From NCBI GenBank assembly GCA_964436655.1, contig CAYTDX010000001.1, positions 14,993 through 78,992 of the forward strand: DNA of 64,000 bases. The letters are read 5' to 3'. Below are positions 5,459 through 50,717 of this stretch, in pieces. Each line of letters starts with the position of its first letter. The first letter of the stretch is position 1. The notes below the pieces were generated by a model. That model was given only the letters and a program-made list of their open reading frames with translations, did not search any database and was not told the origin of the DNA. Both the position numbers and the translations under genes were made by a program. The stretch is from an uncultured Caldimicrobium sp. (GTDB lineage Bacteria > Desulfobacterota > Thermodesulfobacteria > Thermodesulfobacteriales > Thermodesulfobacteriaceae).

Positions 5459-6129
5459 GGCCAGGCTTATCTGTCATTATCCCAACTCTTAACGAGGAAA
5501 AGGCTCTTCCCTTAACCTTAAAATCCCTTGAACTTCTTGACCCCGATGAGGTGCTGGTTGTTGATGGTGGAAGTGAGGATAATACCCGAGAAATCGCAGA
5601 ATCCTATGATGCAAAGGTAATACCCAGTAAAAAGGGTAGGGGACTTCAGTTAAGAAAAGGGGCAGAATTGGCTCAAGGGGACCTTCTTTTTTTCATGCAC
5701 GCAGATTGTATAATCTTAGATAAAATTAATCTCAGAGACTTATATGGCTCTGGCCTAAGGGCTGGTTTTTTGAAATTAGTGTATAACGACAACAGGTTTT
5801 CTATCAAAGTCCTTGAAAGCTTAATCAATCTCAGGGCAAGATTACTGCATCTACCCTACGGGGATCAGGGGCTTTTCATTGAGAAAACCCTTTATGAAAA
5901 GATAGGTGGTTTCAAGGATTATCCCTTTCTTGAAGACTTTGACCTTGTTTTGCGTTTAAGGAAAGTCTTTCCCCCTAAAGAACTTCCGGGAAGGATCCTT
6001 GTCTCTCCCAGAAAGTTTAATAGTTCCAATCCCCTTTATCCCTTTTGGGTTAGCCTTAGAAATAATTTTATACTCCTAAGCTTTTTACTTGGAAAATCTC
6101 CTGAATATTTAAGAAAATTTTATAAATAA
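5455..6129 (+). CDS. Family 2 glycosyltransferase-like protein (the type annotated as rSAM/selenodomain-associated transferase 2)
   Basis: LSVIIPTLNEEKAL start typical of GT2, then VVDGGSEDNT and DQGLF motifs. 4-nt overlap with the preceding methyltransferase. Confidence 0.7.
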   Translation: MRPGLSVIIPTLNEEKALPLTLKSLELLDPDEVLVVDGGSEDNTREIAESYDAKVIPSKKGRGLQLRKGAELAQGDLLFFMHADCIILDKINLRDLYGSGLRAGFLKLVYNDNRFSIKVLESLINLRARLLHLPYGDQGLFIEKTLYEKIGGFKDYPFLEDFDLVLRLRKVFPPKELPGRILVSPRKFNSSNPLYPFWVSLRNNFILLSFLLGKSPEYLRKFYK

Positions 6130-6155
6130 CAGAGAACTTCTTTATATTTTTCTAT

Positions 6156-6184
6156 TTGACAGGGTAACCATTAAAGTTTATAAT
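6156..6184 (+). promoter_or_regulatory. Consensus sigma70-type promoter for the rhodanese / arsM-arsS operon
   Basis: TTGACA (6156-6161), a 17-nt spacer, then TATAAT (6179-6184). It sits 56 nt upstream of the ATG at 6240, which is preceded by AGGAGG. Confidence 0.55.
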
Positions 6185-6239
6185 ATTAAAATCTTTTATA
6201 TCCCTAAAGGACAAATAAAAAAACTTCAGGAGGTGTGAG

Positions 6240-11724: not shown

Positions 11725-12198
11725 GTGGATCTTTATTATTTCTCCTTCACTGGAACCTCTAAAAGCCTTGCCTTTGCCCTTGCAAGTAAACTTAAGATAA
11801 CTCCAAAGGAAATAAAGAGCTTCTCCTTTCCTTACCCAATCTGGCTTTTACTCTCTTTCATACCTCCTTTGTGCTTAAAAGCCAAATTTGAGCCACCTGA
11901 AAGCTCCTCTGGAATTCTTGTTTTCCCTAAGTGGACCTTTAATTGTCCTCCTGTGACATATTTTTTAAAAGGTGTCTCCTTTGAAAAACTTCTTTTGATT
12001 ATCCTTTATGGAGGCTGGAGAGAAAAACCCTATGGGGAGTATTACAGAAAGCTTGCTTTGAAAAAATGCAAAAGAGTTGATATTATATACATAAAGAGAA
12101 AAAAATGGCTCGGTGAAGGAGAGCTAATATTAAAAAAAATTTCAGCAAAAGCTGAGGAATTTTTTAGTGAGACACACACACTGAGAAAAGAGACTTAA
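11725..12198 (+). CDS. Hypothetical protein, possibly flavodoxin-fold
   Basis: 157 aa ORF with a GTG start. The N-terminus YYFSFTGTSKSLAFALA resembles the flavodoxin-like FS-TGNT loop. The assignment is weak. Confidence 0.35.
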   Translation: MDLYYFSFTGTSKSLAFALASKLKITPKEIKSFSFPYPIWLLLSFIPPLCLKAKFEPPESSSGILVFPKWTFNCPPVTYFLKGVSFEKLLLIILYGGWREKPYGEYYRKLALKKCKRVDIIYIKRKKWLGEGELILKKISAKAEEFFSETHTLRKET

Positions 12199-12768: not shown

Positions 12769-13995
12769 TCAGGCACCAAATTTATTCAATCTCTCAGCGT
12801 GGGCAAGAAGAAGGGGCATCAGTTTATAGCTTGGAAAAATACCCAGTTCTCCCTTGAAACACTCTCTTTCTGTAAACCTCTGAGAGAGGCCTCCCAGACA
12901 ATAGGGCGAATGTAAAAGCACTGGCACAGGATGCCAGGAATGAGCCTTCAGTATGCAAGGCGTGGAATGATCCCCGGTGATAGCTATGACTTGAGGATTT
13001 AATGAGAGAATTTCTAATAAATTTCTGTCAAACTCTTCAATTACCGAAATTTTTCCTTCATAATTTCCATCTTCTCCATAGGAATCGGTTTTTTTAATGT
13101 GCATAAAGAAAAAGTCATATTCTTCCCAGAAAGTTTTTAGAGCCTTGACCTCTGCCTCAATGGACTCCCCCTCAAAAGTAACCAGATCCATTCCAACAAG
13201 GCTTGCCAGTCCTTTATACATGGGATAAACGGCAATACAGGCACTTTTTATCCCAAATCTATCAGGAAAGGCCTCAAGGTCTGGTTTTACCGAAAATCCC
13301 CGCAATAGCACATAGTTGGCCTTAGGTTCGTTCTTCAGTAATTCTGAGGCCTTATCAATAAATTTTCTGGCAACTAAAGCCACCCTTTCAGCCTCTGGAT
13401 TTTCACCCACAGGAAGCAGTGGAGACCTCTCTGTTGCCTGTGGGTCTGTGTCATTTATCTTTTCAAAGAAGTGGGAGAGTCTGTAAGGAAATCGTAAGAT
13501 AAGGGAGAAGCGATGCTCTTTCCCGGAACAGAGTATCACCTCAGCTTCATCAATTTTTTTAATATTTTCCGATAAATATTTTATTAATCTCTTATTTTCT
13601 TCCGTGGGAATTCGTCCGGCCCTTCGGTCAATAACTACAGGCTTTCTATCGGTGTATCTCACTGTGGCAAAATTGCCTCTTATGGCCACATCTGTTTCTC
13701 TTACCTCCAGCCCAACTCCCACGGCCTCAAGTATACCTCTTCCAATCTCAATTTTCAGAGGATCATATCCAAAGATTCCCAGATGTCCTGGCCCGGAACC
13801 AGGGGTTATTCCATAATCCACAGGAATGTGGAGACCCGTTGCAGACCTGCGGGCAAGATTATCTAAATTGGGAGTTTTTGAAAGCTCTAAGGGGGTCTTC
13901 CCCTCCTTTATAGGTAAGTCCCCTACCCCATCCAGGACTAATAATATAATTTTAGACTTAGAATCCCTTTTTAATAGTTTCTTTAATCCTTCCAT
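12769..13995 (-). CDS. apgM: Cofactor-independent phosphoglycerate mutase, archaeal-type (ApgM family)
   Basis: [10 protein letters not shown] ... TGDHSTP metalloenzyme motifs. I prefer the ATG at 13995 (GGAGG-N6-ATG) over the ATG at 14001, which abuts the Shine-Dalgarno sequence. Confidence 0.8.
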
Positions 13996-14158
13996 CTTCA
14001 TCCTCCAGAGGCATCTTTTCTTTCAATTGTTCAATGTCTTCTTGATATTCCTTAGCAGGCCTTTCCATGCCACAGGTAAGACACCTTACCCGGGCCTTGG
14101 CTCATTTACCACAAAGAATGGCCCTTCCACCGCAGTAATGACAGGTTAGTCCATCCAT
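13958..14158 (-). CDS. Candidate small selenoprotein (66 codons, in-frame TGA at codon 19) with a CxxC-x6-CxxU-x6-CxxC array
   Basis: The ATG lies 2 nt after the mrp stop codon. Translation: MDGLTCHYCGGRAILCGK[TGA][48 protein letters not shown] stem-loop (14069-14095) has its apical loop starting 17 nt after the TGA. SelB is encoded in the same window. It is absent from the ORF track because of the TGA. Confidence 0.4.
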
Positions 14159-14160
14159 TT

Positions 14161-15324
14161 CTATGCTCTCTGGCTTAAAAGGGTATTTATTAGATTATCC
14201 GGATTAGCTTCCTTTTCTTCGGTTAATAATACTCTTATGCCCTGACTGGAAAGCTCATCAGCTAAAGAACTGGATGAAGAATGAAGTAGGATGTGTGTGG
14301 CTACTTGTTCTTGTAAAAAGTCAGTGAGACTTTGATTTTGGGGCTTTTTGGCCACATCTTTGACCAGAATTTTGTTATTTTCAATGTCATAAAGGGCAAA
14401 AAGTTCAAATCTCTCTGGACTTTCCTCAAATTTTTGAGGGTTTGAAATAGGAACAGCAATACGCATGAATTTTTCTTCCAAAAGCTCTTTTTGCATCTCT
14501 TCAGTAGCTGAAACAATGTTTCTTATTACTTCCTCAAAGGCTTGAGCAGTAAGGCTTTCAGGATAAGCCCCTACAATGGGTTTCCCCCTATCTCCTGTAT
14601 CCACCACTCTTGGATCAACAGGAATCTTTCCCAGAAATCTGATTCCCATCTCTTCGGCAAGTTTTTGTCCTCCTCCCCTCTTGAAGAGATCAAGGGGTTT
14701 TCCGCAGTGGGGACAGACAAAACCACTCATGTTCTCCACAAGGCCAAGGATACGCATCTTTACTTTCTGACAAAACTTTATAGACTTTTTAACATCAATT
14801 AGAGACACCTCCTGGGGAGTTGTAACTATAAGGGCATAGGCATCAGGAATAGTTTTGGCAACTGTAAGAGGTTCATCCCCGGTGCCAGGAGGTGCATCTA
14901 TTACAAGATAGTCAAGTTCTCCCCAGTCAATATCACCAATAAATTGCCGGATAGCTGAGATTTTTATGGGGCCTCTCCAGATAATGGCTGAGTCCTCGGC
15001 TGGAAGAAGGGGCTCAATGGAGAGAAATTTCAAATTGGGAGAGTATTTTATGGCCCCAAGCCTTCCATCCGGGCGTCTTGTCAGTTTCAGATCCCTTGCT
15101 CCGAGCATTTTCGGAATACTCGGGCCGTGCAGATCCACATCCAGAAGTCCTACCATAAAATCCTGAAGAGAAAGACCAACGGCCACATTAACTGCAACTG
15201 TGCTTTTGCCAACTCCTCCCTTACCAGACATGACCATGATTTTATGTTTGATCTTAGAAAGCTGTTCTTTGAGTTTTTTATCCTGCTGATCCAGTATGGC
15301 ACTCTTTTCTTTTTTGACGGGCAT
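14161..15324 (-). CDS. Mrp/NBP35/ApbC-type Fe-S cluster carrier ATPase fused to a NifX/NifB-C-like (dinitrogenase FeMo-cofactor-binding fold) domain
   Basis: SGKGGVGKST deviant Walker A and CPHCG motif in the N-terminal ~270 aa. The C-terminal ~110 aa (MRIAVPISN...FALYDIEN...) resembles the NifX-type domain. Confidence 0.85.
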   Translation of the reverse strand: MPVKKEKSAILDQQDKKLKEQLSKIKHKIMVMSGKGGVGKSTVAVNVAVGLSLQDFMVGLLDVDLHGPSIPKMLGARDLKLTRRPDGRLGAIKYSPNLKFLSIEPLLPAEDSAIIWRGPIKISAIRQFIGDIDWGELDYLVIDAPPGTGDEPLTVAKTIPDAYALIVTTPQEVSLIDVKKSIKFCQKVKMRILGLVENMSGFVCPHCGKPLDLFKRGGGQKLAEEMGIRFLGKIPVDPRVVDTGDRGKPIVGAYPESLTAQAFEEVIRNIVSATEEMQKELLEEKFMRIAVPISNPQKFEESPERFELFALYDIENNKILVKDVAKKPQNQSLTDFLQEQVATHILLHSSSSSLADELSSQGIRVLLTEEKEANPDNLINTLLSQRA

Positions 15325-48797: not shown

Positions 48798-50717
48798 ATG
48801 AACGAGGTAAAGCGAAGTCTGGTTATAGGCACAGCCGGTCATATAGATCATGGAAAGACTGCCCTTGTTAAGGCCTTAACAGGTATAGATACTGATCGTT
48901 TGAGAGAAGAAAAGGAAAGAGGTATCACCATTGACATTGGCTTTGCCAGGCTGATGCTTCCCTCAGGGGTTCAGGCAAGCATCGTTGATGTCCCCGGGCA
49001 CGAGAGATTTATTCGCAACATGGTGGCAGGCGCATCAGGTATTGACCTTGTCATGCTTGTTATAGCGGCTGATGAAGGAATCATGCCTCAGACAAGAGAA
49101 CATCTGGATATATGTGAACTTCTCGGAATAAAAGATGGTCTTGTGGTCTTAACGAAGACTGATCTTGTGGATGAGGAATGGCTGGAGCTTGTAAAGGCGG
49201 AGGTAGAAGAGTATCTGAAAGGGACCTTTTTGAAAGATGCCCCTATTGTGCCCTTTTCTGCCGTTACCCTGCAGGGTAAGGAAGAGCTTATTAAGATTCT
49301 GGATGCCAAGGCCCAAACCCTTAGAGTCAGGGAGAGAGCCTTGCCCTTTAGACTGCCTATAGATGGCGTTTTTCTAATCAAGGGATTTGGGCTGGTGGTT
49401 AGGGGGACAGCCCTTTCAGGGGAGGTCTCCATCAATCAGGAGCTTATGCTCTATCCCCATATCAAAAGGGTCAAGGTGAGAAATTTACAGGTCCATGGGG
49501 AGCCTGTGGAAAAGGCCTTTGCAGGTATGAGGGTGGCCATAAATCTCCTTGGTGCTGAAAAGGAGGAGATCAGCCGAGGAGATGTGATAGCAGAGCCGGA
49601 TGTCCTTGAACCCTCTCAGTGGTTAGATGTAAAAATAAGGGTATTAAAGGGAATAGATCCACCTCTTAGAATCTTTGAACCCCTTTTGTTCTATTCGGGG
49701 ACCTCAGAGGTCCTGGGAAAGTTAATCCTCTTCAATAGGGATACCCTTCAGGCTGAAGAGGACATTGCCCAGATTCTTTTACAGAAACCTCTTTGTCTCT
49801 GGCGAGGAGATAGATTTATTTTAAGAAGACCCGGGACTAATGAAACTGTTGGGGGAGGTGTGATTCTAAATCCTCTTGCCAGAAGAAGAAAAAGAACAAA
49901 GCCCTGGGAAAGGAAAGAGCTTGAATTTTTAGCCTCCTCTAAAGAGAATGAACTCCTTTTGCACTATATTGAAAAAAATGGAGTTAAGGGTATATCTCAG
50001 AGGGAACTATCATTATATACCAGTCTTTTCGGAGACAGGCTAAAAAGACACCTCACAGAGCTAAAATCTGATATAATTGACATTAAAGCAGGAGATAATC
50101 TCTATCTATTTTCGGTCAAGGCCCTTAAAGAATTAAAAGAAGAAATCGTAGAAAAATTGAGAAAATTTCACCAGAATAACCCCTTTTCACCTGGATTAAC
50201 CAAGGAATTTATTAAAAGTAGATTATCTCTTGAGCCTCGTGAAGTCCTCTTTGAAAGGGCCTTAGAGGAGTTAACTTCAGGTGGAGTTCTCCATAGAGAA
50301 AAGGAACTTTACTTTATTCCTGAATTTCGCAAAGAGTCCTCAGCCATGGAGACCTTAAGGAGAGAACTTGAAGAGAAATTTTTGCAAGAGGGACTGACTC
50401 CGAGAGATGCCGAGGAGATCCTTTTAGAATTCGGCAAGGAAGTCAAGGCAGCTGAAGAGGTATTGAAGTTATTGCTAAGAGAAGGGGTGCTTGTTAAGCT
50501 CACGGATAAACTAATTTTTCATAGCCGGGTGCTAAAAAAAATTGAAGAGGATGTAAGGGCCTTTTTCAAAAGTCATTCTGAGCTTACCATCGGGGATTTT
50601 AAAAAGATCGTCGGAGAAGGGGTTTCAAGAAAATATCTCATTCCCATAATGGAGTACCTTGATAAACAAAAAATAACCCTTAGAGTTGGGGATAAAAGAG
50701 TGCTTAGAAAGATATAA
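48798..50717 (+). CDS. selB: Selenocysteine-specific translation elongation factor SelB
   Basis: EF-Tu-like G domain ([22 protein letters not shown]) and a ~290 aa C-terminal winged-helix extension characteristic of bacterial SelB. Confidence 0.9.

Follow-up and report, generated by a model that had tools for sequence, protein, structure and literature searches.

A probable selenocysteine-decoded member of the OS_HP3/NF041197 family between mrp and apgM in an uncultured Caldimicrobium sp.

Small proteins with two CxxC motifs and a selenocysteine (Sec) between them form a family that has already been catalogued computationally. OS_HP3 was predicted in 2007 from two TGA-containing open reading frames (ORFs) with hairpins resembling the selenocysteine insertion sequence (SECIS), at a time when no cysteine (Cys) homologue was known (Zhang & Gladyshev, PMC1976440). 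A 2025 methods paper treats OS_HP3 as a known selenoprotein, and a 2026 review (PMC13188914) equates it with NF041197, the NCBIfam family 'CxxC_Se_CxxC, dual CXXC motif small (seleno)protein'; the identity of the two names as used here rests on the statement of that review. The family is not mentioned in the paper of Haft and Gwadz on eight selenoprotein families. Its members are proteins of approximately 50–80 residues in which two CxxC motifs, spaced by about 16 residues, flank one column with Sec or Cys. In this study, we analysed a stretch of 64,000 nucleotides from an uncultured Caldimicrobium sp. (contig CAYTDX010000001.1, forward-strand positions 14,993 to 78,992), referred to below as the window and numbered from its first letter, and within it the apparent gap between the minus-strand genes mrp and apgM. 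It is highly probable that this gap holds a genuine 66-codon gene (13958–14158, minus strand), a Sec-decoded member of OS_HP3/NF041197.

With U written as C, the protein encoded by this gene has NF041197 as its only meaningful match in NCBIfam (E = 7.2e-8; residues 6–48 on profile positions 1–43 of 53). It resembles the family in being small (66 amino acids), in its dual CxxC motifs with the Sec/Cys column between them and in the in-frame SECIS-like hairpin after the UGA; the two CxxC motifs (CHYC, residues 6–9, and CLTC, residues 26–29) are invariant in the alignment of homologues. It differs in the immediate surroundings of the Sec residue. The local motif is 'RxU' in the review and G-[RK]-U in distant members, whereas the clade of the window has G-x-U, with T, A, K or a similar residue after an invariant Gly. 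In the window copy, moreover, the Cys normally present in the C-terminal tail is missing, and a Cys seen in none of the other Sec forms stands at position -3 of Sec. The original prediction, made from the sequence of the window, had put the gene forward as a candidate new small selenoprotein; the match to a catalogued family makes it a new sub-threshold member and not a new family.

The interrupted frame and its homologues

Two nucleotides past the mrp stop codon TAG (14163–14161), the minus strand has an ATG at 14158–14156, with a purine-rich GAGAG (14170–14166) 7 nt to its 5' side. It opens the frame MDGLTCHYCGGRAILCGK-TGA-AKARVRCLTCGMERP...KKGF, which comprises 66 codons and closes with the stop codon TAA at 13960–13958; the in-frame TGA is codon 19 and occupies 14104–14102. 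Both the ORF and the TGA stand where the original prediction had placed them. Its description of the ORF as unannotated holds for the full gene but not for the C-terminal half, a 36-residue piece starting at Met31 (13958–14068, minus strand) that is a called protein in NCBI/ENA (P0001).

Gauged by the Mrp protein, the relatives of the window genome are Thermodesulfobacteriaceae, with 86% identity to the metagenome-assembled genome (MAG) UBA6232 and 79–82% to Caldimicrobium MAGs. In a tblastn search of the seven closest genomes, the small frame was recovered immediately behind mrp in six, with its stop at the matching column and clear conservation beyond it; by inspection the stop is TGA in all six (L001–L006). 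The seventh, Thermodesulfobacterium hveragerdense (L007), is without the small gene. A word-indexed protein search with the U-to-C sequence returned as its sole match the 36-residue fragment of the same genome, so that a profile was needed, and a profile of seven orthologous proteins retrieved 38 metagenome loci and several database proteins. Metagenome locus L118 was discarded as a false positive, a sirtuin-like protein that shares the peptide ARVRCLTCG. The comparison set comprises 37 distinct homologous DNA versions from Thermodesulfobacteriaceae/Caldimicrobium genomes and metagenomes, all in the frame of the window gene. The codon 19 column holds TGA in 37/37 of them, and TAA, TAG or a sense codon in none (0/37); the TGA is shared by sequences with only about 50% protein identity.

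A Cys form of the gene occurs in a neighbourhood that it shares with Sec forms. The protein P0003, from a Thermodesulfobacteriota MAG, is 64% identical to the window protein and has Cys at the Sec column; the codon is TGT, as confirmed in the DNA of L119–L121, and the gene lies in the same rlmE-sbcD-dapB neighbourhood as the Sec forms L101, L104 and L110. More distant family members, retrieved by an exhaustive HMMER search, have Cys or 'W' at this column, the distant Cys forms being P0017, P0020, P0021, P0023, P0025 and P0026. The names attached to Cys forms in the databases are all 'hypothetical protein'. Tryptophan (Trp) is given in the database entries P0002, P0004–P0008, P0015, P0016, P0018, P0019, P0022 and P0027. 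In the DNA of P0016 (L122, positions 56–241) the codon is TGA, not TGG, and another hairpin lies at the same place; the 'W' is evidently a gene-calling artefact in which TGA was read as Trp, and the callers that do so presumably use genetic code 4. Entries of this kind hide selenoproteins as apparent Trp proteins. For the window itself, genetic codes 4 and 25 are ruled out, because TGA ends 19 of the 38 long open frames and is the commonest ordinary stop. Homologues thus keep TGA or Cys at codon 19, do not terminate there and are conserved downstream, and a Cys homologue, which the original prediction had proposed to look for, exists in P0003. On these comparisons, the in-frame TGA can with high confidence be taken as a Sec codon.

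The hairpin after codon 19

After the UGA, and wholly within the coding sequence, the RNA can fold as GCC-CGGGUAAG-[GUGU]-CUUACCUG-(U)-GGC (14095–14069, minus strand). The lower stem pairs 14095–14093 with 14071–14069, a U at 14072 is bulged, and an upper stem of 8 bp (14092–14085 with 14080–14073) leads to the apical loop GUGU (14084–14081), which begins 17 nt after the UGA. The codons spanned are A-R-V-R-C-L-T-C-G, with the second CxxC knuckle included. This hairpin, described in the original prediction, is the minimum-free-energy structure of the 61-nt stretch tested (-22.4 kcal/mol, z = -1.84), and its 27 nt folded alone give -15.4 kcal/mol.

The model of bacterial SECIS elements (bSECIS) set out in the review (PMC13188914) has an apical loop of 3–9 nt, an upper stem of 4–16 bp, a minimum free energy of -7.5 kcal/mol or lower, a G among the first two nucleotides of the loop (mostly G[G/U]) and a distance of 16–37 nt between UGA and loop. 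The loop, the upper stem, the spacing and the energy of the window hairpin all fall within this description. Like the fdhF-type bSECIS, the hairpin lies immediately 3' of the UGA and inside the coding sequence, with a 4-nt loop starting G-U, the same kind of spacing and upper stem, and a bulged U beneath that stem; it is unlike it in that neither the bulged U nor the lower stem is conserved among relatives. The likeness is one of geometry, and sequence similarity to the Escherichia coli element is not claimed. An Rfam scan of the hairpin gave no match at gathering thresholds or at E <= 10, a result that says little because, to our knowledge, Rfam holds no bacterial SECIS family.

The hairpin is conserved among relatives. 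All 32 distinct relatives have folding energies of -7.8 kcal/mol or lower, and the upper seven stem pairs are formed in 32/32 sequences; the conserved form is GGUAAG-GUGY-CUUACC, with the stem lying in the codons [KR]-V-R-C-L-T-C. Synonymous sites in the stem are frozen: Arg is AGG in 37/37 sequences and Thr is ACC in 36/37, the lone ACT still pairing as G-U, while Val is GTA and Leu is CTT in 32/37 each. Third-position entropy is 0–0.57 bits in the stem codons versus 0.9–1.7 bits at invariant Cys, Gly, Ile and Glu elsewhere, and the Cys codon in the hairpin loop, unlike the stem codons, varies freely at its third position. Val GTG and Leu CTC occur together in the same five sequences and in no others, a compensatory exchange of A-U for G-C (at 14087/14078 in window numbering) by two synonymous substitutions.

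The Cys orthologue provides the complementary observation. P0003 writes K-V-R-C-L-S-C as AAA GTA AGA TGT CTC TCC, with four substitutions that break three stem pairs and replace the first G of the loop (14084 in window numbering) by A. Loss of the hairpin in the TGT orthologue, and its retention with TGA, indicate that the hairpin is kept up only in genes that have the TGA. The comparative evidence supports the interpretation that the hairpin behaves as a SECIS element and is a candidate target of SelB. The Sec-specific elongation factor itself is encoded in the window, as the original prediction had noted (selB, 48798–50717, plus strand; TIGR00475, 390.8 bits against a cut-off of 242.25). A ribosome arriving at UGA codon 19 would be met by SelB with Sec-tRNA(Sec), bound to the in-frame hairpin 17 nt downstream, and Sec would be inserted without termination.

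The UGA could also be read through without Sec, by near-cognate decoding as Trp or Cys, the hairpin then serving mRNA stability or ribosome pausing. The Trp given at the site in entries such as P0002 and P0004–P0008 is what this would produce, and Sec incorporation in the OS_HP3/NF041197 family is so far predicted. The 'W' is, however, an artefact, with TGA and not TGG in L122; the replacement residue in homologues is always Cys, which is the signature of Sec; and the hairpin has bSECIS geometry and vanishes exactly where TGA has become TGT, with SelB present. We consider decoding without Sec to be very unlikely.

Probable translation across the TGA

Selection acts alike on both flanks of codon 19. 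The 13 codons before the TGA have mean column entropies of 0.57/0.56/1.38 at codon positions 1/2/3, and codons +11 to +30 after it have 0.60/0.57/1.34; this shared third-position signature of purifying selection indicates that both sides are translated in one frame. No part of the protein is more conserved than the segment A-x-A-[KR]-V-R-C-L-T-C-G right after the TGA, which holds the second CxxC knuckle; VRCLTCG is invariant in the alignment.

These data bear on the possibility, raised with the original prediction, that the TGA is a true stop, so that an 18-residue leader peptide would precede an independent 36-residue ORF beginning at Met31. Such an ORF is what NCBI/ENA call as P0001, and TGA is, as said, the usual stop in the window. 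Met31, however, is present in only 6/37 homologues and is replaced by I, L, A, Y or F in the rest, which leaves the downstream half without its own start in the majority of species. The stretch of 11 codons from the TGA to Met31 shows the strongest conservation in the protein and includes the second CxxC knuckle; an ordinary stop would drift among TGA, TAA and TAG; and the Cys orthologue P0003 reads straight through. The comparative data lead us to reject the leader peptide, to which we leave only a very slight chance.

A similarly small likelihood attaches to a third reading, in which the protein is real but mainly regulatory, a selenium-dependent upstream ORF whose translation to the end is coupled with initiation at the following gene, here apgM. 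In 5/5 contexts the small gene directly precedes a gene on the same strand, and at times it overlaps the start of that gene: the last 44 nt (13958–14001) lie within the longest apgM frame, in a different reading frame, and an overlap of 50 nt with rlmE is called in L119–L121. These overlaps may reflect real translational coupling or an over-extended start of the downstream gene, and they depend on the start codon chosen for it. Tight spacing is, moreover, usual in compact thermophile genomes, Cys forms without a UGA keep the same arrangement, and strong conservation of the zinc ribbon and helix at the protein level argues for a protein function. Decay of a zinc-ribbon gene by a nonsense mutation, the other alternative raised at the outset, has next to no probability, since the same TGA persists across proteins only half identical, purifying selection is equal on both flanks and none of the 37 distinct copies has another stop or a frameshift; true decay is seen in one metagenome copy (L114, positions 1882–2004), which has lost the first CxxC and gained extra in-frame stops, yet retains the AAGGTAAGGTGTCTTACCTG hairpin sequence intact.

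Several points weigh against a Sec-decoded family member and are set beside the evidence above. The window protein scores 32.5 bits with NF041197, 7.5 below the curated cut-off of 40. The orthologues in L001 and L004 reach 41.1 and 40.8 bits, the four other syntenic orthologues 33.7–39.4 bits, and the Cys forms P0003 and P0026 45.2 and 45.1 bits; judged from its sequence, the window gene is a divergent member of NF041197 by homology, not by the automated rule of NCBI. selA, selD and the tRNA-Sec gene were not found within the 64-kb window, SelD having been sought by a motif scan. No experimental paper on Sec incorporation was found for this family, the 2007 and 2026 papers both being computational. 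Finally, the five GTG/CTC sequences share one gene context and clade and probably record one evolutionary event, so that the covariation count is small.

Modelled fold, neighbourhood and meaning

The structure of the Cys homologue P0003 was modelled with AlphaFold2 from a 7-sequence alignment (mean predicted local distance difference test score, pLDDT, 71; 80–87 over the ribbon). In the model, strands 3–5, 12–16, 23–26 and 32–34 are followed by a helix (35–53), and the two CxxC knuckles clamp a small sheet, giving a zinc ribbon with a helix. The Sec column (residue 19) falls in the turn between strands 12–16 and 23–26, away from the metal site. The model supports the assignment of the window product as a small Cys-rich metal-ribbon protein. 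Cys6, Cys9, Cys26 and Cys29 would form the two knuckles around a metal that is most likely Zn, and Sec19 would occupy an exposed β-hairpin turn between them, with an amphipathic helix after it.

Database comparisons place this fold in general terms. Foldseek against the PDB and a PDB sequence search returned only non-significant generic zinc ribbons (Rpb9/RPC10/TFIIS-type, TopoI and eS27), with Foldseek E >= 0.3 and an eS27 match (E = 0.002) below significance. In Pfam, the sole signal was Lar (PF14354), at 18.7 bits, and at 14.5–20.7 bits across four family members, against a gathering threshold of 28.6, and membership of Lar was rejected on these scores. The ribbon of TFIIS has a functional acidic DE loop at the tip of its hairpin. 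The modelled protein is like the TFIIS/Rpb9/RPC10, eS27 and Lar ribbons in having two CxxC knuckles that clamp a three-stranded sheet and a functional residue, here presumably Sec, at a β-hairpin tip; the likeness is one of fold and logic, not of membership.

The regular array CxxC/CxxU/CxxC that first drew attention to the locus is present in the sequence, but its regularity is partly a local coincidence. The Cys at -3 of Sec (Cys16, codon TGT, 14113–14111, minus strand), which creates the local CGKU, occurs in 1/37 Sec forms, that of the window genome; what is conserved around Sec is G-x-U-A, with G-[RK]-[U/C] as the form in distant members. The distant Cys form P0020 (64 amino acids, from an ENA metagenome) has CGRC at the position of CGKU, and from the sequences the extra Cys appears to have arisen at least twice in the family. 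Reading CxxU as the classic redox motif is thus not upheld. The window copy shares C-G-K-U with the thioredoxin-fold CxxU/UxxC selenoproteins, and its Sec/Cys pair suggests redox chemistry; unlike in those proteins, the motif is not conserved and would lie in a β-hairpin turn of a zinc ribbon, not at the N-terminus of a helix. No thioredoxin-type family match was obtained for the window protein or its family in NCBIfam or Pfam.

A different Cys is widespread. A tail Cys after the helix is found in 41 of 47 distinct complete family proteins; L002 and L003 have a Cys at +19 instead, and the window protein has Cys16 instead, its tail Cys having been lost by an apparent in-frame deletion of approximately six residues relative to L001. 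In most relatives Sec would pair with the tail Cys to give a reversible selenenylsulfide, and in the window genome Cys16 probably takes over the role of the deleted residue.

Upstream of the small gene lies mrpORP (14161–15324, minus strand), which encodes an Mrp/NBP35 ATPase with a NifX-like C-terminal domain and scores 421.9 bits with NF041136 (MrpORP), just under the cut-off of 450; like the small gene, it stands at the edge of its NCBIfam family. Downstream is apgM (12769–14001, minus strand; NF003160, 588.9 bits). There is no terminator-like site between mrpORP and the small gene, and the 2 nt between stop codon and ATG make their co-transcription very probable; the small gene would then form one transcript with mrpORP and apgM. 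The order mrp–small gene–apgM occurs in L001–L006 and 11 metagenome loci, all of the Caldimicrobium-like clade. Elsewhere the small gene stands before dnaX-ybaB-recR, before rimP-nusA, before rlmE-sbcD-dapB, or after topA and before a nucleoside-phosphorylase-like gene (the gene identities come partly from Pfam and partly from reading the sequences). Given five unrelated gene contexts, a conserved functional partner, Mrp included, was rejected, and the link to the neighbouring Fe-S carrier suggested earlier does not extend beyond the clade in which mrp is adjacent. In the rlmE-sbcD-dapB context (L101, L104 and, at 5844–6207, L119–L121), a shorter Mrp/ParA-like ATPase of approximately 260 amino acids is encoded 2.7 kb downstream. 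An Mrp-type gene nearby in two of the five contexts could be the remnant of an older linkage or a coincidence, and is weak evidence at best. In L007 (5158–5700), which lacks the small gene, the place directly after mrp is taken by a homologue of an ORF found in the window at 11725–12198 (plus strand), the two sharing the FPKWTFNCPPVTYFLK motif; since the window has this ORF on the far side of apgM and in the opposite orientation, a local rearrangement is implied.

What the protein does can be proposed only tentatively. It may be a small protein for redox chemistry or for the handling of metal or chalcogen, with Sec19 as its reactive group, bonded reversibly to a second Cys on a metal-stabilised scaffold; this specific redox mechanism we hold to be possible but rather doubtful. 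Three observations tell against it: the five contexts, all of housekeeping genes, hold no conserved functional neighbour; L117, P0017 and P0027 have no extra Cys at all; and the model is of moderate confidence overall and was built on P0003, not on the window protein. By analogy with TFIIS, Sec at the tip of the ribbon hairpin might further act as an insertable reactive finger that delivers or accepts chalcogen, metal or electrons, possibly with MrpORP as partner. This we regard as quite unlikely, the support for an Mrp partnership being adjacency in one clade and the Mrp-like gene downstream in a second. With MrpORP as partner, the protein would be a selenium-dependent accessory factor of a new kind in the biogenesis of metal clusters, and the window genome would show how the role of resolving Cys has shifted naturally from the tail to CxxU.

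For annotation, the consequence is that a real gene is absent, or cut to 36 amino acids, in the window genome and its relatives, missed because gene callers take the TGA for a stop (or, in some pipelines, for Trp) and because the clade straddles the NCBIfam cut-off. The 37 Sec forms and the Cys forms could be used to retrain the NF041197 model. No new category of protein is opened by this gene, and its value lies in the corrected annotation, in the local CxxU variant and in a natural control for SECIS function: one orthologue in one neighbourhood is found both with TGA and hairpin and with TGT and no hairpin, which strengthens a family known from prediction only. At this locus, too, a probable SECIS element shares its nucleotides with the codons of a metal-binding knuckle, and the selenoproteome of a thermophilic lineage of the sulfur cycle gains one probable member.

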